Assembly (NCBI RefSeq): GCF_014697195.1
Contig: NZ_JACJRJ010000023.1
Location: forward strand, 60,755 to 92,754
Reading direction: 5' to 3'
Length of the DNA: 32,000 nt
From: Cylindrospermum sp. FACHB-282
Lineage (GTDB): Bacteria > Cyanobacteriota > Cyanobacteriia > Cyanobacteriales > Nostocaceae
The position numbers and the translations under genes are program-made. This document shows positions 9,402 to 24,374 of this stretch, in pieces. Under the pieces are notes generated by a model, which saw only the letters and a list, made by a program, of their open reading frames with translations, was not told where the DNA came from and made no database searches. Each line of letters begins with the position of its first letter. The stretch's first letter is position 1.

Positions 9402-9471
9402 ATTACCAATTACCCATTACCCATTACCCATTACCCATTACCCATTACCAATTACCAATTACCCATTACCT
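9402..9471. repeat. Heptanucleotide STRR array (attaccc/attacca) x10
   Basis: Ten consecutive 7-nt units run from 9402 to 9471. The array overlaps the last codons and the stop codon of the minus-strand patB-like ORF. Confidence 0.95.
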
Positions 9472-11054
9472 ATATTTAGCAGTTTACGTAGTAGAGCTTG
9501 GTCTTCTAATTTGGGTTTTAAACGACCATTTTCGACATCGCGAATCCAGCTTTGACTTTTACCTGTGAGCTTTGCTAATTCTCTCTGGGAGAGATTCAGA
9601 TTTTTTCGCGCTTGTAAAATCTGTTCGCCTAGCAAATCGCCTGTAGGTTTAGGCTTTTTTTTGGTCTTAGCAGTTCGCCGCTGTTGTTTGTCTGATTCTG
9701 AGTTTTGCTGATCCCATTCTGGGGGAAGTTCAAAAGACAAAATCCGGGCATTCATCAGCAGATTCCACTTACCGCGGGGCCCTGTGTCTGTGAGGCGAGT
9801 CTCACCCCCACCGTCATTAATCCAAAATTCCAAAGCTTCATCTGGATCTTCGGGTATATCGACTAATTTCGCCCACAAGGGTTGGATTTCTGGGGGGTAT
9901 GTAACTGGGTCAAAAAGTGGTTTGATTCCGTAATGATTGAGCATTTCCAAATCACTTTCAAAGGTTCGCAGCAGGCGCTTGCGTTCTTCCCGTTGTCTGG
10001 CGGCTAGGGTAACTTTTTCTTCACCATAAGCAACTCGTAGCAAAGTAGGAATGGTGATGCGTTGTTCTTTGCCCATTTTGGTTTTAAACAGCAACCATAA
10101 CATGAGTCTGACGGCTCCTTCATGTTGCTGCCAAATACTCATAACTGTAGTTAAGAGGGTTTTGGGTAGACTGCCATATTGATAAAATGCGGTTCGGTCT
10201 TTACAGGCTTGTTTGTTTAAGAAATGTTGGCTCCAGATGCCGGCTTTAATTTTAAAAGTCAGTCCGATGAGATATTTGCACCCTTGATCATCTTCTTGAA
10301 AGTGGTGTTCAATTTTCGTCAAATGCCACAAGGGACTTTGTGTAACTGAGAATCCCTTAATTCGACCTTGTTGGGGCCAGTCAATGGAAATGATCAGGGA
10401 GCAAGCTTGCTGAACGATGTTTTTCATTAAACTCAGCTTGGCAATTTTGCTCAGGTCTTTGCGTTTCTCTAGCCCTAAATATTTTTCAATTTGGCGCTCG
10501 TCGATGGCAAATTCTTGCTCCCAAGGTTGATCTAAGGCTGTAGCATGGGCGGCGAAAATCAGATGTATGGCTGCGGCTCGGATATCTAGTCCTTCAATTG
10601 CTTGTAAGTCTGTGACGCGATTGCTTACTTGCAATGGATCTTGGATGTGAAAGGTAATTGCCCCCCGGCCTTGATTAACTTGTCGGCTATAACATAAGTA
10701 GCCTTCTTCATCTGTCTCCCAATGTAGGGATGTGCGCTGGGACAATAGGTTGCAAGCTTCCCAAATTGCGATCGCAGAAGCATAAGGATGATTCTTACCA
10801 TTAGAAAATAAATCTTGACTGGTAGCATCTCGCGGTTCAACTTTACATCTGCCCTTTTTTGCCCGCCAAGGTATGGGAGAATTTGTTGGACAGACGATTA
10901 CACATTGGGGTTCAGGATAAAAACCCTCACAATTGTTACAAAGACAAGGATCGATCCAGTATTCACCGTTCTCTATTTTGATTGCACCCGTGGGACATAG
11001 GGGACGACAGTTGTCACATCCAACGCAACTGTTGTTAGGAATTGTATAAGGCAT
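9459..11054 (-). CDS. patB: PatB/CnfR-type transcriptional regulator: N-terminal 2x[4Fe-4S] ferredoxin-like domain plus C-terminal XRE-type HTH
   Basis: The N-terminus has CVGCDNCRPLCP and CLCNNCEGFYPEPQCVIVCP. The C-terminus reads LNLSQRELAKLTGKSQSWIRDVENGR. At 531 aa it is close to the ~529 aa I recall for Anabaena PatB. It is divergent from a ferredoxin-cox operon, as I recall for Anabaena PCC 7120 (all2512). Confidence 0.8.
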   Translation of the reverse strand: MPYTIPNNSCVGCDNCRPLCPTGAIKIENGEYWIDPCLCNNCEGFYPEPQCVIVCPTNSPIPWRAKKGRCKVEPRDATSQDLFSNGKNHPYASAIAIWEACNLLSQRTSLHWETDEEGYLCYSRQVNQGRGAITFHIQDPLQVSNRVTDLQAIEGLDIRAAAIHLIFAAHATALDQPWEQEFAIDERQIEKYLGLEKRKDLSKIAKLSLMKNIVQQACSLIISIDWPQQGRIKGFSVTQSPLWHLTKIEHHFQEDDQGCKYLIGLTFKIKAGIWSQHFLNKQACKDRTAFYQYGSLPKTLLTTVMSIWQQHEGAVRLMLWLLFKTKMGKEQRITIPTLLRVAYGEEKVTLAARQREERKRLLRTFESDLEMLNHYGIKPLFDPVTYPPEIQPLWAKLVDIPEDPDEALEFWINDGGGETRLTDTGPRGKWNLLMNARILSFELPPEWDQQNSESDKQQRRTAKTKKKPKPTGDLLGEQILQARKNLNLSQRELAKLTGKSQSWIRDVENGRLKPKLEDQALLRKLLNIGNG

Positions 11055-18210: not shown

Positions 18211-18324
18211 TTATATTCCGTAGAATAGGCGTCCCGCCTGTTCACAGACATCCCTAGAATTAAGATAGTTATAGCGCCTAGAATGCTTGCTATTCTGGGC
18301 GTTTTCATTTTGATTATAAATTCT

Positions 18325-18436
18325 GGCGTTGCTGATTAAAAATATGAATATGTGTCACGCAAAGGCGCTTTCGTCGCAAAGAATCAAGCTTAAAAAGGTT
18401 GACTTTCCCAATTTCATATTCTAATTCAGCAACGCC
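18325..18436. mobile_element. MITE-like element, family copy 1 (TIR ggcgttgctgat ... tcagcaacgcc)
   Basis: Its terminal inverted repeats and subterminal tatgaa/ttcatattct motifs are shared with 30787-30896. Confidence 0.7.
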
Positions 18437-18483
18437 TAAATTCTTAACTGGTTTAGCGATCGCAACTATTTGAGAGTTTGTCG

Positions 18484-18605: not shown

Positions 18606-19073
18606 ATGGAACCCACAACATTAGCATTAGCGATCGCTACTATATTTCTCACCAAAGCACTAGAAAAATCTGGTGAGAACTTCAGCGATGGTTTGACGAA
18701 AAAAGTTGGTGATGCACTTGCTAAAATCCGCAAACATTCCCCCGAAACAGCCACAGCAATAACAGCAGCTGATCCACAAGTCTTGAATCTAAATAAAACA
18801 GTCTTAGAGCAAATCCCACCCGATCCGATTTTTGCCGAATTGGTCGATACTGCCGATGCAGAGAAAAATACCACATTTCAGGAGAAGCTTCAGGCAGTGA
18901 AAACAGGCAGAATTGTACAAGTGATGGCAAGTGAGATTGAAGCAACTAATCTCAAAGCAAAATCAATGAAACAAACAGCACCCCATGCAGCCGATTCAGT
19001 AGAACAGACGATGCTAAAAAATGTCAAAGCAACCGGCGATATTGATTTAGGTGATTTGACTCAAGAGGCATAA
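18606..19073 (+). CDS. Small protein with a hydrophobic N-terminal helix and a C-terminal G/D/L motif; candidate effector or adaptor of the downstream STAND NTPase
   Basis: 155-aa ORF with an ATG start. N-terminus reads MEPTTLALAIATIFLTKALEKSGENF. It is helical and charged in the middle and ends in KNVKATGDIDLGDLTQEA. The stop lies 3 nt before the next start. Confidence 0.65.
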   Translation: MEPTTLALAIATIFLTKALEKSGENFSDGLTKKVGDALAKIRKHSPETATAITAADPQVLNLNKTVLEQIPPDPIFAELVDTADAEKNTTFQEKLQAVKTGRIVQVMASEIEATNLKAKSMKQTAPHAADSVEQTMLKNVKATGDIDLGDLTQEA

Positions 19074-19076
19074 GCG

Positions 19077-19508
19077 ATGGAAGAGTTATTAGAACTTAAG
19101 GATTTACTAATTAGTGGCAATATCTCCGAGGCATTGCTGCTAGTGGAGGAAATGACCGAGATGAGCAAGGATGATAAGCTCAACAAAATTATTAGCTTTG
19201 GCATTATTTTGCTCCTGCATTTGATTAAGCAAGAAGCAGAGAAACGGACAACGCGCTCATGGGAGGTATCAATTCGTAATTCCGTGCGGCACATTCAACG
19301 TACCAACAAGCGACGCAAAGCAAACGGCAACTATTTTACACAAGCCGAATTGCAAGAAACTCTAGAAGAAGCTTATCAATCTGCTTTGGAACAGGCATCA
19401 TTAGAGGCGTTTGAAGGCAGGTATGAAGCCGAAGAAATTGCTGAAATGATAGATCGCACCAAAATTATAAATCAGGCGATCGCATTAATCTTGGAAAATC
19501 CTATATGA
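19077..19508 (+). CDS. DUF29-like helical protein
   Basis: LLLHLIKQEAEKRTTRSWEVSIRNSVRHIQR ... LEEAYQSALEQASLE resembles the DUF29 core pattern (LLxHLLKW...SWxxTIxxQRxxI). Its stop overlaps the next start (ATGA at 19505-19508). Confidence 0.6.
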   Translation: MEELLELKDLLISGNISEALLLVEEMTEMSKDDKLNKIISFGIILLLHLIKQEAEKRTTRSWEVSIRNSVRHIQRTNKRRKANGNYFTQAELQETLEEAYQSALEQASLEAFEGRYEAEEIAEMIDRTKIINQAIALILENPI

Positions 19509-22500
19509 GCGAACAACCACAAATTTCGCAAAACCTGTTTACTAATAATACTATCGGCGGCAATGTAACAATAAAGGAAATTAATCAGATTACATCATTT
19601 CAGCCACCACAGATGGAAGGGAACCCCTTTGTACCACCGCAACCGCGAGAGGGTGGGTTGTTTGGACGGGATGACGAATTAGCAGAAGTCCATCAATTAT
19701 TGCAAAGTGGTAAGAATGTCTGCGTAGTTTCCGGCATGGGTGGAGTAGGCAAAACCGGACTGGTGCGGGAATATGTCCATAGCCCAGATTGCAAAACACA
19801 CTTTTCTGGAGGAGTGTATTATATTAATGTGCGCGATAGACAAAATCTTGCTGCCGAAATTGTCGCACTGACCAGGTGGAAGTTTAAAAGCGATTTACCT
19901 CCCAATTTATCACCTCAACAGATGGTAAATGCTTGTTGGGAAACATGGAAAAGGCAGACAGAAAAAGTATTGCTGATTCTTGATGATGTAGCTGATTTAG
20001 CTGAAAACCTCAAGCCTTATTTACCACCATCAGATTTAGGGACAATGCGTTTGTTGATGACATCGCGGGAAACTCCTGACAAACGCATTGCAGAAAAATT
20101 ATCTTTAGAAATATTATCACTGCCCGCAGCAGTGGATTTATTAGCGTCAATTATTGGTGCAAACCGAGTTGCAGCAGAAAGAAAACAAGCCGAAAAGCTT
20201 TGCGAAGACTTAGGACGTTTGCCTTTAGCGTTAGAACTGGTGGGATATTATCTAGATGATGAAGATTATCAGCAACTATCGCTGTTAGCAATGTGCCAAA
20301 AGTTAGAACATAAAGTCAAACATCCTGCACTGTCACCTGAACAAGTGCCGATGGGGATGCAAGCACAAAGAGGTCTGCAAGCTGCATTTGATTTAAGTTG
20401 GGAAGAATTAAAACCAGAAGTAAAATATCTCGCTTGTGTATTGGGTGCATTTGCATCGGCTCCCATCTATTGGGGATTTGTCACAGCAATTTATCAACGT
20501 CTGCAAGATGAATCATTTAGTCCCGATGACTTAAAAGACCGTTGGTTAAAATCTCTGCGAAAGTTGCATCTTGTTATCTTAGTTGAAAAAGATATTTACA
20601 CCTTGCATCTTCTCGTGAGCGACTATTTCAGCGAACAACTTAAAAAGCATCCTGATTACAGCCAAATTAAACAAACATTTTGTGATGTGTTTGCGGATGT
20701 TGCCAGTAACGTAGAGCAATCTAGTAGTCTAGCAATATTCAATTTGATTGAACCGCATTTAAAAAAAATGATTGCTTGGTGTAAAAGCAATGAAAACACA
20801 CAACTTGCCCTCAGCTTAAATGGATTAGCAACACTCTACAAATCCCAAGGACGCTACAGCGATGCAGAACCCCTTTATCAGCAATCCTTAGAAATCAGAA
20901 AACGCCAACTAGGACTAGACCATCCCGATGTAGCATCCAGTCTCAACAATTTAGCGGGACTCTACTATTCCCAAGGACGCTACAGCGATGCAGAACCCCT
21001 TTATCAGCAATCTTTAGGAATCTTAAAACGCCTACTAGGACAAGACCATCCCGATGTGGCATCCAGTCTTAACAATTTAGCATTACTCTACCATTTTCAA
21101 GGACGCTACAGCGATGCAGAATCCCTTTATCAGCAATCTTTAGAAATCTATAAACGCCTACTAGGACAAGACCATCTCGATGTAGCATCCAGTCTTAACA
21201 ATTTAGCATTACTCTACCATTTTCAAGGACGCTACAGCGATGCAGAATCCCTTTATCAGCAATCTTTAGAAATCTATAAACGCCTACTAGGACAAGACCA
21301 TCCCGATGTAGCATCCAGTCTCAACAATTTAGCATCACTCTACGAATCTCAAGGACGCTACAGCGATGCAGAACCTCTTTATCAGCAATCTTTAGAAATC
21401 TATAAACGCCTACTAGGACAAGACCATCCCGATGTAGCAACCAGTCTCAACAATTTAGCAGAACTTTACAGATTGCAAGGACGCTACAGCGATGCAGAAC
21501 TCCTTCATCAGCAATCTTTAGAAATCAGAAAATGCCTACTAGGACTAGACCATCCTGATGTAGCATCCAGTCTTAACAATTTAGCATTACTCTACTCTTC
21601 CCAAGGACGCTACAGCGATGCAGAACCCCTTTATCAGCAATCTTTAAAAATCTATAAACGCCTACTAGGACAAGACCATCCTGATGTAGCATCCAGTCTC
21701 AACAATTTAGCATTACTCTACAAATCTCAAGGACGCTACAGCAATGCTGAACCTCTTCTTCAGCAATCTTTAGAAATCAGAAAACGCCTACTAGGACTAG
21801 ACCATCCTGATGTAGCAACCAGTCTCAACAATCTAGCAGCACTTTACAAGTCCCAAGGACGCTACAGCGATGCTGAACCCCTTCTTCAGCAATCTTTAGA
21901 AATCAAAAAACGCCTACTAGGACTAGACCATCCCGATGTGGCATCCAGTCTCAACAGTTTAGCATTGCTCTACCATTTTCAAGGACGCTACAGCGATGCA
22001 GAACCCCTTTATCAGCAATCTTTAGAAATCTTAAAACGCCTACTAGGGCAAAACCATCCTAATGTGGCAACCAGTCTCAACAATTTAGCATCACTCTACG
22101 AATATCAAGGACGCTACAGCGATGCAGAACCCCTTTATCAGCAATCTTTGGAAATATATAAACGCCTACTAGGACTAGACCATCCCGATGTGGCATCCAG
22201 TCTCAATAACTTAGCAGAACTTTACAGATTGCAAGGACGCTACAGCGATGCTGAACCCCTTTATCAGCAATCTTTAGAAATCAGAAAACGCCAACTAGGA
22301 CAAGACCATCCCGATGTAGCAACCAGTCTCAACAATTTAGCATCACTCTACTCTTCCCAAGGACGCTACAGCGATGCTGAACTCCTTTATCAGCAATCTT
22401 TAGAAATCAGAAAACGCCAACTAGGACAAGACCATCCCGATGTAGCAACCAGTCTCAACAATTTAGCTTTGTTGTATGAAGCGCAAAATAAATATGTAGA

Positions 22501-22759
22501 AGCTGAAAGTTTGTCTAAACAAGCTTTAGCAATATTTCAAAAAAGGTTAGGCAATCAACACCCCAGTACACAAAACGCAGCATTTGTTGTAAAATTATTG
22601 TATATAATGAGCCTTCTGCATTGCAATAAGGAAACATTGCTTGACATTCTGCAAGCTCTTGCACAACAAGCAGAGCTTACCGAGTTTAATACAGAAATAG
22701 CGCTGGCAATGCTAAAAAGACTAGAAAGCAATCCTGAGCTATTGTCATATATTCGATAA
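19505..22759 (+). CDS. STAND NTPase (NB-ARC/AP-ATPase type) with a C-terminal array of 14 TPRs (bacterial NLR-like)
   Basis: Walker A is GMGGVGKT (nt 19733-19756) and Walker B is VLLILDDV, followed by GRLPLALELVG (winged-helix region). Then come 13 near-identical and 1 degenerate 42-aa kinesin-light-chain-type TPRs. Only about 50 aa precede the NTPase domain. Confidence 0.9.
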   Translation: MSEQPQISQNLFTNNTIGGNVTIKEINQITSFQPPQMEGNPFVPPQPREGGLFGRDDELAEVHQLLQSGKNVCVVSGMGGVGKTGLVREYVHSPDCKTHFSGGVYYINVRDRQNLAAEIVALTRWKFKSDLPPNLSPQQMVNACWETWKRQTEKVLLILDDVADLAENLKPYLPPSDLGTMRLLMTSRETPDKRIAEKLSLEILSLPAAVDLLASIIGANRVAAERKQAEKLCEDLGRLPLALELVGYYLDDEDYQQLSLLAMCQKLEHKVKHPALSPEQVPMGMQAQRGLQAAFDLSWEELKPEVKYLACVLGAFASAPIYWGFVTAIYQRLQDESFSPDDLKDRWLKSLRKLHLVILVEKDIYTLHLLVSDYFSEQLKKHPDYSQIKQTFCDVFADVASNVEQSSSLAIFNLIEPHLKKMIAWCKSNENTQLALSLNGLATLYKSQGRYSDAEPLYQQSLEIRKRQLGLDHPDVASSLNNLAGLYYSQGRYSDAEPLYQQSLGILKRLLGQDHPDVASSLNNLALLYHFQGRYSDAESLYQQSLEIYKRLLGQDHLDVASSLNNLALLYHFQGRYSDAESLYQQSLEIYKRLLGQDHPDVASSLNNLASLYESQGRYSDAEPLYQQSLEIYKRLLGQDHPDVATSLNNLAELYRLQGRYSDAELLHQQSLEIRKCLLGLDHPDVASSLNNLALLYSSQGRYSDAEPLYQQSLKIYKRLLGQDHPDVASSLNNLALLYKSQGRYSNAEPLLQQSLEIRKRLLGLDHPDVATSLNNLAALYKSQGRYSDAEPLLQQSLEIKKRLLGLDHPDVASSLNSLALLYHFQGRYSDAEPLYQQSLEILKRLLGQNHPNVATSLNNLASLYEYQGRYSDAEPLYQQSLEIYKRLLGLDHPDVASSLNNLAELYRLQGRYSDAEPLYQQSLEIRKRQLGQDHPDVATSLNNLASLYSSQGRYSDAELLYQQSLEIRKRQLGQDHPDVATSLNNLALLYEAQNKYVEAESLSKQALAIFQKRLGNQHPSTQNAAFVVKLLYIMSLLHCNKETLLDILQALAQQAELTEFNTEIALAMLKRLESNPELLSYIR
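20807..22570 (+). repeat. Intragenic tandem array of 14 x 126 bp (42-aa TPR units)
   Basis: Units start at 20807 + 126n. Units 3 (21059) and 4 (21185) differ at 1 of 126 nt. The last unit (22445) is degenerate. Confidence 0.95.
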
Positions 22760-22864: not shown

Positions 22865-22971
22865 CCTCGTTCCCAGTCTCCGACTGGGAATGCTCTCAAA
22901 GCGGCTTTGCCGCTAGTAACAAGAGGCAGAGCCTCTCAGTAGGCATTCCTAGCCAGAGACTAGGAACGAGG
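22865..22971. mobile_element. MITE-like long hairpin element (cctcgttcccagtctc ... gagactaggaacgagg)
   Basis: 16-bp terminal inverted repeat with 1 mismatch. Internal hairpin cccagtctccgactggg. It is a common cyanobacterial repeat type and lies just downstream of the STAND gene. Confidence 0.65.
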
Positions 22972-23141
22972 GAGAGAACAACTAAATATGCAAAACAGTT
23001 TAACAGCATTAACATTGCCACACAAACAACTAAAAATTAGTTGTAATCCGGAATTATTGCCCAAAAAACACAAATAAAGGGTTGCTGTGCTTAATTATTG
23101 CTTGCTAAACTAAAAGCATTATTTGTTACAACAAAATTAAA

Positions 23142-23507: not shown

Positions 23508-23546
23508 TATCCTATTCAAAGTACCTCCAAACCCCTCTCCTCCAAA

Positions 23547-23602
23547 CCCCTCTCCTTCAGAAGGAGAGGGACAGGTTTTGCACAGCAAAACCAGGGTGAG
23601 GT
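23547..23602. repeat. Hairpin repeat A (ccctctccttcagaaggagaggg + caggttttgcacagcaaaaccagggtgaggtt)
   Basis: About 89% identical to the reverse complement of 24279-24334. Confidence 0.85.
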
Positions 23603-23695
23603 TTCTTCAGTCCCTAAATGGCTCTAGACAGACTCCCGTGGTAAGAATTTCTGTATACTTATTGCCAGCGGGTATTTATGTTACCCCACAGTAAG

Positions 23696-23741
23696 ACCTC
23701 ACCCCTAGCCCCTCTCCTTCTAAAGGAGAGGGGGACATGAG
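23696..23741. repeat. Hairpin repeat B, left arm of a perfect 46-bp inverted repeat
   Basis: acctcacccctagcccctctccttctaaaggagagggggacatgag is the exact reverse complement of 24375-24420. Confidence 0.95.
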
Positions 23742-23818
23742 AGGGGGACATGAGAGGGGAGGGGGACATGAGGGGAGAGGGGGACATGAGAGGGGAGGGG
23801 GGATATGAGGGGAGAGGT
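23728..23818 (+). repeat. G-rich irregular tandem repeat (gggggacatgagag)n
   Basis: gacatgag (one variant gatatgag) recurs at 23735, 23747, 23765, 23783 and 23802. Runs of G4-G6 lie between the copies. The array ends 29 nt before the DUF559 ATG. Confidence 0.9.
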
Positions 23819-23846
23819 ATGTTAGATGAAGAGGGAGAGATGAGAA

Positions 23847-24227
23847 ATGACTGAGCTTTTTAATCGGACTGAAGATATTGAAAAACGCCGTCGTCTGCGT
23901 CAGAATTCAACTGCGGCTGAGGGGATTCTGTGGCAGCATCTGCGTAACCGAAAGCTTCAGGGATACAAATTTCGCAGACAGTATGGAATTGATCGCTTTG
24001 TGGTTGATTTCTACTGTCCCGAAACACACCTGGCGATTGAGCTTGACGGTAGTATTCATGATATTCCAGAGATTGCAGAACGCGATCGCTATCGTCAAGC
24101 ATTCATCACCGCTAAAGGCATTCACTTTCTCCGCTTTCGCAACGAAGAGATATCCGACAACCTCCCCAATGTCCTACAACGCATCATCACAACCCTTCAA
24201 TCCCTCTCATGTCGCCCTCTTATTTAA
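23847..24227 (+). CDS. DUF559 (Vsr/restriction-endonuclease-like fold) endonuclease domain protein
   Basis: The sequence reads LRQNSTAAEGILWQHLRNRKLQGYKFRRQYGIDRFVVDFYCPETHLAIELDGSIH ... GIHFLRFRNEEI. This matches the DUF559 pattern (E..LW..LR......FRRQ......DF.C......IE.DG..H). Confidence 0.85.
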   Translation: MTELFNRTEDIEKRRRLRQNSTAAEGILWQHLRNRKLQGYKFRRQYGIDRFVVDFYCPETHLAIELDGSIHDIPEIAERDRYRQAFITAKGIHFLRFRNEEISDNLPNVLQRIITTLQSLSCRPLI

Positions 24228-24278
24228 CTACGGTTTATACACAAGTCTTTCTGAATGCAGTTTATGGTGGCGATTCAA

Positions 24279-24334
24279 AACCTCACCCTGGTTCTGCTAC
24301 GCATAACCTGTCCCTCTCCTTCGTAAGGAGAGGG
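24279..24334. repeat. Hairpin repeat A, inverted copy
   Basis: See 23547-23602. Confidence 0.85.
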
Positions 24335-24374
24335 ATTAGAAACGACGGGAGGGACTTTTTATCAAGGAATTCCC

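Follow-up and report, generated by a model that had tools for sequence, protein, structure and literature searches.

A probable Bell/NLR pair of the BASS4 type, with a DUF29 gene in an exchangeable junction cassette, in Cylindrospermum sp. FACHB-282

In the fungus Podospora anserina, the protein HET-S consists of a HeLo pore-forming domain and a prion-forming domain of two repeats, and the latter is templated by a single repeat at the N-terminus of NWD2. Pairs of bacterial genes encoding a Bell-domain effector and an NLR-like receptor joined by a BASS motif have been proposed as the counterpart of fungal HET-S/NWD2 and of the RHIM-type amyloid signalling of animals. The locus described here lies in a 32,000-nucleotide (nt) stretch of DNA from the cyanobacterium Cylindrospermum sp. 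FACHB-282, hereafter the window, and comprises three open reading frames (ORFs) on the forward strand: ORF A (18606-19073; 155 amino acids, aa), ORF B (19077-19508; 143 aa) and ORF C (19505-22759; 1084 aa). Most probably it is an intact pair of a Bell-type effector (ORF A) and an NB-ARC/TPR NLR (ORF C) of the BASS4 type, with a gene of the DUF29 family (ORF B) in the junction between them. Such systems are already known; what is added here is the exchange of the junction as a cassette, followed at the level of single bases, and the recurrence of small genes within it.

Dyrka et al. (2020, bioRxiv 10.1101/2020.01.06.895854) defined the Bell domain and ten BASS families by mining motifs that occur both at Bell C-termini and at the N-termini of NLRs encoded next to them. 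Bell was described there as a small globular helical bundle of about 100 aa, with a predicted hydrophobic N-terminal alpha-helix and an acidic residue at position 2 or 3, from a set gathered by HMMER searches seeded with ONI86675.1. It is found mainly in proteins of 120-140 aa and more rarely as the N-terminal domain in NLR-architecture proteins (Dyrka et al. 2020). Abortive infection against phage has been proven for one pair of this kind, Bab/Agp of Escherichia coli, which carries the BASS11 motif (Ibarlosa et al. 2024, bioRxiv 10.1101/2024.11.07.622273).

The window pair corresponds to the Bell/BASS4/NB-ARC-TPR pairs of filamentous cyanobacteria in effector family, motif family, motif register, NLR architecture and collinearity. 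It shows no essential difference from them as a pair, apart from a more divergent motif on the NLR side. With HET-S/NWD2 it shares the underlying logic: the two genes are adjacent, the effector ends in an amyloid motif, and the NLR bears one motif at its N-terminus. ORF A also appears to carry one strong and one degenerate repeat, reminiscent of r1 and r2 of HET-s, the second of these being a tentative assignment. It differs from the fungal system in having a Bell rather than a HeLo effector, another motif family, an NB-ARC/TPR in place of a NACHT/WD receptor, and a predicted operon in a bacterium. Bab/Agp likewise combines a small Bell-related helical effector, which has a hydrophobic helix at its N-terminus and an amyloid motif at its C-terminus, with activation by the N-terminal motif of the adjacent gene product, although the motif family is another one and no link between ORF A and Bab was detectable by sequence or PDB search. 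Avs and bNACHT proteins resemble ORF C in joining a STAND NTPase to a C-terminal repeat sensor, and a relative of the ORF A N-domain is itself fused to NACHT in one metagenomic protein (P0327, below). In Avs and bNACHT, however, the effector is fused to the receptor, whereas in the window it is a separate protein, putatively recruited through a short motif. None of ORFs A, B and C gave a significant full-length match to the Avs or other defence models of PADLOC.

The effector, the receptor and their shared motif

The three ORFs are intact and packed end to end, as the initial annotation had described. The TAA stop codon of ORF A (19071-19073) is followed by the three nucleotides GCG and then by the ATG of ORF B at 19077, which has GAGG 8-11 nt to its 5' side, and the stop of ORF B overlaps the start of ORF C in the sequence ATGA (19505-19508). 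No terminator-like site was found between the ORFs.

ORF A is identical (100%) to a hypothetical protein of FACHB-282, the strain from which the window derives. Its first 100 residues (18606-18905) form a Bell-like helical N-domain that opens with M-E-P and the hydrophobic helix TTLALAIATIFLTKAL; the hydrophobic N-terminus noted earlier is thereby borne out, and it coincides with a helix at residues 3-21 in an AlphaFold2 (AF2) model. In this model, which has a mean predicted local distance difference test score (pLDDT) of 83 and values of about 90 across residues 10-100, the latter region is entirely helical, with further helices at 28-44, 46-53, 57-68, 74-84 and 89-99. The remainder of the protein, residues 101-155 (18906-19070), is the BASS4 tail, in which strands are modelled at 102-109, 120-124, 131-138 and 150-154. 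These strands are only suggestive of an amyloid-forming motif.

Homologues of ORF A start with M-[ED]-P and a hydrophobic helix, have the N-domain of about 100 residues in common and differ in their C-terminal tails, which correspond to BASS4, to BASS3 (RHIM-like GxGNTQNNxF) or to BASS5 (KLAEKIG). A profile of the N-domain matched 283 clusters among 1.84 billion representative proteins, nearly all of them 110-170 aa long and matched at residues 1-100. Among the exceptions is P0327, a metagenome representative of 909 aa in which an ORF A-type Bell domain (1-91) is fused to NACHT (257-419) and NCH2 (804-900). Pfam holds no Bell hidden Markov model (HMM), and membership of ORF A in the Bell family was judged by proxy through its orthologue in Cuspidothrix issatschenkoi CHARLIE-1 (locus L001). 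This protein, PPJ64015.1, is 67% identical to ORF A over 155 aa and is the Bell-side member of a published pair (Dyrka et al. 2020, Table S2). ORF A also shows the features by which Bell was defined, namely the N-terminal helix with its acidic residue, the helical domain of about 100 aa, and a family size distribution with rare NLR-type fusions. Searches of Pfam, PADLOC and NCBIfam gave no match for ORF A, a PDB sequence and profile search found nothing, and a Foldseek search of the PDB with the AF2 model returned nothing significant (best E=1.2). At the level of sequence, ORF A joins a helical domain of the Bell family to a BASS4 tail, and by analogy with characterized relatives it is predicted to be a membrane-targeting executor of cell death.

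The assignment of the tail to BASS4 begins from an alignment in the initial annotation, which is correct as it was described: ORF A residues 133-155 (nt 19002-19070) align without gaps to ORF C residues 8-30 (19526-19594), with four identities in 23 positions. Taken within the window this similarity is weak, as had been recognized, with an ungapped BLOSUM62 score of 26 and a shuffle p of 0.012. Nevertheless, only five of 726 other ORF N-termini score 26 or more against the ORF A tail, and four of these five belong to BASS4-type NLRs adjoining ORF A relatives (L001, L020, L004 and L002). The published bass_04 pair from C. issatschenkoi, PPJ64015.1 (residues 136-158, VEQTMLKNVKVTGDIDLGDLSQE) and PPJ64013.1 (residues 3-26, QPQINQSILNNVNVGGNLTTGDI), has its motifs in the very register proposed for the window, and its two genes are listed as 433 nt apart (Dyrka et al. 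2020, Table S2). This pair is orthologous to that of the window. The published distance is accounted for by a DUF29 gene, the corresponding distance between ORF A and ORF C being 431 nt, and the orthologues of ORF A, ORF B and ORF C in L001 stand in the same order with the same 3-nt gap and 4-nt overlap.

The 12 published BASS4 sequences other than the orthologous L001 pair were made into an HMM, which was used to search 3365 ORFs. It matches the ORF A tail with E=1.8e-12. Most of the match comes from a strong repeat, R2 (ORF A 131-153, VEQTMLKNVKATGDIDLGDLTQE; 36.6 bits, independent E-value 5.4e-10). A second match of 7.3 bits at residues 101-119 falls within a degenerate upstream repeat, R1 (about 101-125), which is separated from R2 by a variable, Pro-containing linker; the R1 repeat of L001 scores 14.4 bits (independent E-value 0.0055). 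Compared pairwise as sequences, R1 and R2 show no significant similarity (p=0.057), and the pseudorepeat is put forward tentatively on the basis of the modelled strands and the second HMM match.

On the NLR side, the motif occupies ORF C residues 7-30 (19523-19594, ISQNLFTNNTIGGNVTIKEINQIT). The motifs of a BASS4 pair span about 20-25 aa and lie in adjacent, collinear genes, as do those of ORF A (131-153) and ORF C. Apart from ORF A, the BASS4 HMM matches no ORF of the window but ORF C, and that weakly (residues 7-28, 8.8 bits, E=0.17 among the 3365 ORFs), whereas the N-termini of orthologous NLRs are matched with E=1e-7 to 6e-5. On this side, no other motif of the BASS4 set diverges as far as that of the window. 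An HMM made from the BASS4 tails of this family alone was too narrow to find NLR N-termini significantly. One made from BASS3 tails does match the N-termini of adjacent NLRs, with E=1e-7 to 1e-3.

ORF C has the order N-terminal BASS4 motif, Pro-rich linker, NB-ARC domain and TPR array. The NB-ARC domain (19685-20266, residues 61-254) matches PF00931 with E=2.3e-11 and 43.9 bits, against a cut-off of 23.5, and its Walker A (GMGGVGKT) and Walker B (LLILDDV) motifs are intact. Pfam finds 14 TPR_10 stretches in frame. At the nucleotide level the core of the array (20825-22467) consists of 13 tandem units of 126 nt (42 aa) that are 84-92% identical, and degenerate flanking units widen it to about 20699-22636. 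Variation between units clusters at unit positions 10, 13, 14 and 32. Rapidly diversifying, highly conserved repeats with few variable positions have been reported for such NLRs, and the array of ORF C fits this description. The NLR orthologue of Cylindrospermum stagnale PCC 7417 (L124 8015-10666) has 883 aa against 1084, and the number of TPR repeats must therefore be polymorphic between close relatives. The reading of ORF C as a STAND protein, with only a short motif and the Pro-rich linker ahead of its NTPase, holds. PADLOC gave for ORF C only a P-loop-level match to Avs4 (E=0.0034 over 35 residues) and a generic TPR model.

Related loci do decay, and it might be asked whether the window locus too is an inactive relic, kept only for its DUF29 gene. 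This appears to be the state of the syntenic locus of Cylindrospermum sp. NIES-4074 (L024 7902-8595), where the ORF A homologue lacks about residues 49-152 and the NLR is gone past about residue 12, while DUF29 remains intact (93% identical in nucleotides and 96% in amino acids). ORF A is truncated in L020 and is a pseudogene in L009, several NLR genes are split in the metagenome-assembled genomes L026-L033, and the divergence of the NLR-side motif in the window could be taken in the same sense. Against this, all three window ORFs are intact, including the 1084 codons of ORF C with its 14 in-frame TPR units and both Walker motifs, and the idea of a relic is accordingly improbable. The locus adds a clean, intact example of BASS4 in a culturable Cylindrospermum strain.

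Matched motifs and the exchange of the junction cassette

If the two motifs act together, they should change together in relatives, and co-variation of this kind had been named by the initial annotation as a test of its proposal. Twenty-four non-redundant loci were sampled, each holding a relative of ORF A with an NB-ARC gene downstream. In all 24 the type of the tail agrees with that of the NLR N-terminus, without a single mismatch: 15 pairs are BASS3, eight are BASS4 and one is of a third type. The matched pairs span three clades of the nucleotide-binding oligomerisation domain (NOD). Simple shared ancestry does not explain the agreement, because related NODs carry different motif types. L001 (BASS4) and L010 (BASS3) share 93% identity between their NODs despite their different motifs, and NOD clade II mixes L002, L004 and L020 (BASS4) with L013 and L014 (BASS3) at 70-74% identity.

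These comparisons also bear on the suspicion, voiced from the start, that the terminal similarity is accidental, in which case ORF A would be an unrelated small membrane protein and the NLR would use some other output. The faint likeness within the window, the failure of the narrow tail-only HMM to find the NLR and the lack of an ORF A match in curated libraries are what such an explanation has in its favour. It is contradicted by the matching of 24 pairs out of 24 across three NOD clades, by the publication of the orthologous pair as BASS4 and by the independent HMM match to the tail. Chance has thus become a very remote explanation, on the strength of the comparative data rather than of the window itself, and the proposal of an NLR acting on a separate effector through a shared terminal motif is upheld.

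How the two motifs come to change in step can be seen in C. stagnale PCC 7417, which has a syntenic locus (L124) at the same chromosomal position and between the same flanking genes. In a blastn comparison, the window is collinear with L124 at 92-95% identity through position 18907, that is, to about residue 101 of ORF A at the end of its helical domain, where homology stops. It restarts at 19595, at NLR residue 31 and immediately after the motif, with 88% identity. The intervening 687 nt (18908-19594), the junction cassette, hold the BASS4 tail, the DUF29 gene and NLR residues 1-30, and are the only long non-homologous segment of the locus. In C. stagnale their place is taken by 757 nt that encode a BASS3 tail, hicA, hicB and a BASS3 N-terminus (NLR residues 1-25), hicA beginning 3 nt past the Bell stop codon just as DUF29 does in the window. 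An independent pair, L001 and L010, has its breakpoints in the same places, at about ORF A residue 97 and about NLR residues 32-37, and past the latter the NODs are 95.5% identical.

Effector tail, intervening gene or genes and NLR N-terminus are shown by these alignments to be exchanged as one contiguous cassette. A single short piece of DNA encodes both motifs, so that replacing it replaces both, and the pair stays matched. The end of the Bell domain and the NOD linker, both of which are conserved, could serve as arms for recombination. Cassette exchange offers a simple account of how the specificity between sensor and effector can diversify while the two remain matched. Dyrka et al. (2020) make no mention of an intervening gene, of hicAB or of cassette-wise exchange of the junction.

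The contents of the cassette vary. Genes for the HicAB type II toxin-antitoxin system, or hicB-like genes alone, lie between Bell and NLR in several BASS3 modules (L013 1679-2154, L014 8384-8859, L124 7424-7866, L017 8396-8656 and L007 8583-8840), in the same slot between Bell stop and NLR start as DUF29 in the window. HicAB is not present in the window, and DUF29 differs from it in being a single gene, without detected similarity to HicA or HicB. At several BASS3 loci a DUF29 gene lies 27 nt 3' of the hicB-like gene, and in a BASS3 module of Anabaena azotica SJ-1 the gene for a Tn5-type insertion sequence (IS) transposase stands between DUF29 and the NLR (L012 9437-10831). Matched pairs therefore flank nothing, DUF29, hicAB, hicB, hicB with DUF29, or an IS element; moreover, the window and L007 both have DUF29, yet they differ concordantly at both motifs. 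Because the inserts vary in this way and the motifs still agree, the matching seems to be under selection.

The way in which the pair might work can be pictured by analogy with HET-S/NWD2 of Podospora, with prion assays on BASS1 and BASS3, and with Bab/Agp in E. coli. Binding of a ligand to the TPR array would trigger NTP-dependent oligomerisation of the NLR through its NOD. The N-terminal motifs clustered in this way would fold into a cross-beta nucleus, and this in turn would template the tail of ORF A. Once refolded, ORF A would free its N-terminal hydrophobic helix to attack the membrane, and the resulting cell death would serve abortive infection or another non-self response. The DUF29 protein would be a passenger in this scheme or, possibly, the product of a gene that stabilises the cassette, like hicAB at the same spot in relatives.

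The DUF29 gene in the junction

ORF B matches PF01724 (DUF29) with 33.3 bits and E=6.5e-8, above the Pfam gathering cut-off of 22.5, and its homologues carry precomputed PF01724 annotation, so that the family named in the initial annotation is the right one. Its AF2 model is all-helical, with seven helices and a pLDDT of 81. The subfamily to which it belongs is 68-88% identical across cyanobacterial orders and is conserved far more than its neighbours. The PDB gave no sequence match to ORF B when searched with the single sequence, and Foldseek returned no significant fold match for the model (best E=0.24). A DUF29 profile did match designer PPR proteins in the PDB (E=4e-7), but this value sums weak matches of one helical hairpin, none of which passes by itself, and homology was rejected as improbable. 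The hairpin in question, at the N-terminus of the subfamily (ORF B residues 9-29, 19101-19163, LLISGNISEALLLVEEMTEMS), has a resemblance to PPR/TPR-like repeats. PADLOC searches with 20 DUF29 members yielded weak, mutually inconsistent matches and hence no assignment to a defence family, and literature searches found nothing that ties DUF29/PF01724, HicA or hicAB to Bell/NLR pairs.

The position of ORF B invites the idea that DUF29 is a genuine third component of BASS4 systems, for example a safety catch, bound to the tail or to the N-terminus of the NLR, that guards against spontaneous nucleation, or else an operon adaptor or regulator. Both the 3-nt gap and the ATGA overlap have been conserved in the window, L001, L026-33, L045 and L079/81, extending to Pseudanabaena-type loci in which the Bell N-domain is only 24% identical to that of the window, the tail 83% and DUF29 68%. 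When co-occurrence of the three genes was surveyed, a member of the DUF29 subfamily was found adjacent in 12 of 25 species-level loci with an ORF A relative, and the Bell-adjacent members occupy at least eight places in the DUF29 tree. The survey from the other side gave a different picture. Only about 16 of 80 metagenome loci of the subfamily have a Bell neighbour, and some 78 of the 99 DUF29 loci with flanking sequence have no Bell, NLR or remnant of either. Elsewhere the gene sits beside der, aroC, Uma2, DUF2281, a kinase or other STAND ATPases, among others. The BASS4 pairs L002 and L004 and many BASS3 pairs lack DUF29, hicAB occupies exactly its position in the syntenic sister species, and 57% of collinear Bell/NLR pairs are separated by 10 bp or less (Dyrka et al. 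2020). Its persistence after loss of Bell and NLR, as in NIES-4074, implies a function or a selfishness independent of them, and defence-system models match its members in no consistent way. A dedicated third component is on this evidence a rather doubtful reading.

Some DUF29 genes that at first appear to stand alone prove to have traces of the system beside them. In Pseudanabaena sp. PCC 6802 the gene is preceded by the end of a tail, ..QTMLKNVKVTGDIDLGD*, and followed by a 35-aa ORF starting MSEQP; in Anabaena PCC 7108 it is preceded by ..DLTQEA*; and in L009 an internally deleted ORF A pseudogene lies to its 5' side. These remnants of a BASS4 tail or NLR start count in favour of a third component. 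In PCC 6802, DUF29 is followed by genes for a KAP-family NTPase, for a protein of 864 aa whose function is unknown and for a PIN protein (L040 4925-9449), which looks like a remnant cassette beside a different NTPase system. The order B-A-C was considered as a rearrangement of A-B-C and rejected at least for L009, L058 and L088, since an older BASS4-tail remnant precedes DUF29 at each of them, with the N-terminal helix of the ORF A pseudogene also preserved in L009. From the sequence, these loci are a remnant followed by B and then by a newer A and C.

The somewhat favoured interpretation makes DUF29 a small, self-sufficient gene carried along in the junction, to whose stability it possibly contributes. 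The gene would not be a dedicated or obligatory signalling part of the Bell/NLR system, as most members of its subfamily stand alone elsewhere. The insertion of a DUF29 gene between effector and sensor, as described in the initial annotation, stands, but the gene is most likely a passenger, given hicAB in the same slot and a family found mostly elsewhere.

Several points weigh against the view of the locus as a BASS4 pair with DUF29 as a passenger. The NLR-side motif of the window is divergent, both to the HMM (E=0.17) and in pairwise comparison (shuffle p=0.012), and no experimental data on BASS4 were found in the literature examined, in which only BASS1, BASS3 and BASS11 have been tested. 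The ORF A N-domain is without a significant PDB match, and any kinship of fold with Bab and HeLo is putative. Part of the co-variation is due to physical linkage of the two motifs in one cassette. Finally, the tight coupling of DUF29 in both Nostocales and Pseudanabaena-type loci and the BASS4-tail remnants 5' of some apparently solitary DUF29 genes are each compatible with a functional link.

A bolder possibility, to be entertained with considerable reserve, is that the junction is a mobile 'specificity cassette' whose embedded gene acts as a safety catch on amyloid nucleation or as an addiction-type gene that drives retention and spread. An addiction function would account for the survival of DUF29 where Bell and NLR are lost. 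If the embedded genes do modulate or stabilise the system, this would open a first way into the function of DUF29, a large and functionally uncharacterised cyanobacterial family, and would link toxin-antitoxin biology to amyloid signalling.

Flanking elements and neighbouring genes

The locus is flanked on both sides by housekeeping genes. Upstream of it lie the cox operon and a gene of the ArsC family. On the forward strand, 3' of the ArsC-family gene, a terminator-like hairpin (18273-18303) with a 13-bp stem followed by a T-run was recognized as a match to the consensus only; it likely marks the start of a separate, predicted transcription unit of ORFs A, B and C. Downstream are a 121-aa ORF, a DUF559 gene and a PALP enzyme.

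The initial annotation had the module bracketed by repeats resembling miniature inverted-repeat transposable elements (MITEs). Hairpin elements are indeed present on both sides, one at 18314-18447, 5' of ORF A, with inverted arms of 35 nt, which is not part of the system, and a MITE-like one at 22865-22975, 3' of ORF C. They do not bracket a mobile unit. Neither is related to the other, both occur once in the window, and they form the only other non-homologous patches against C. stagnale, where they are indel polymorphisms. Two MITEs delimiting a mobile module were rejected on these grounds and because in C. stagnale the module is found at the same chromosomal position. L011 and L100 have copies of the downstream hairpin type between their DUF29 and NLR genes.

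The DUF559 gene downstream, which is MTES_1575 endonuclease-like (23847-24227), is flanked by 60-nt inverted repeats at 23545-23604 and 24278-24337 that are 88% complementary, and G-rich tandem repeats of 13-18 nt lie 5' of it at 23726-23817. Judged from these repeats, the region 23545-24337 may be a small mobile or hairpin-rich element. Elsewhere in the window, the reverse strand at 9459-11054 encodes a protein of 531 aa that, unusually, combines an N-terminal 4Fe-4S motif with a C-terminal HTH_3/HTH_31 domain.

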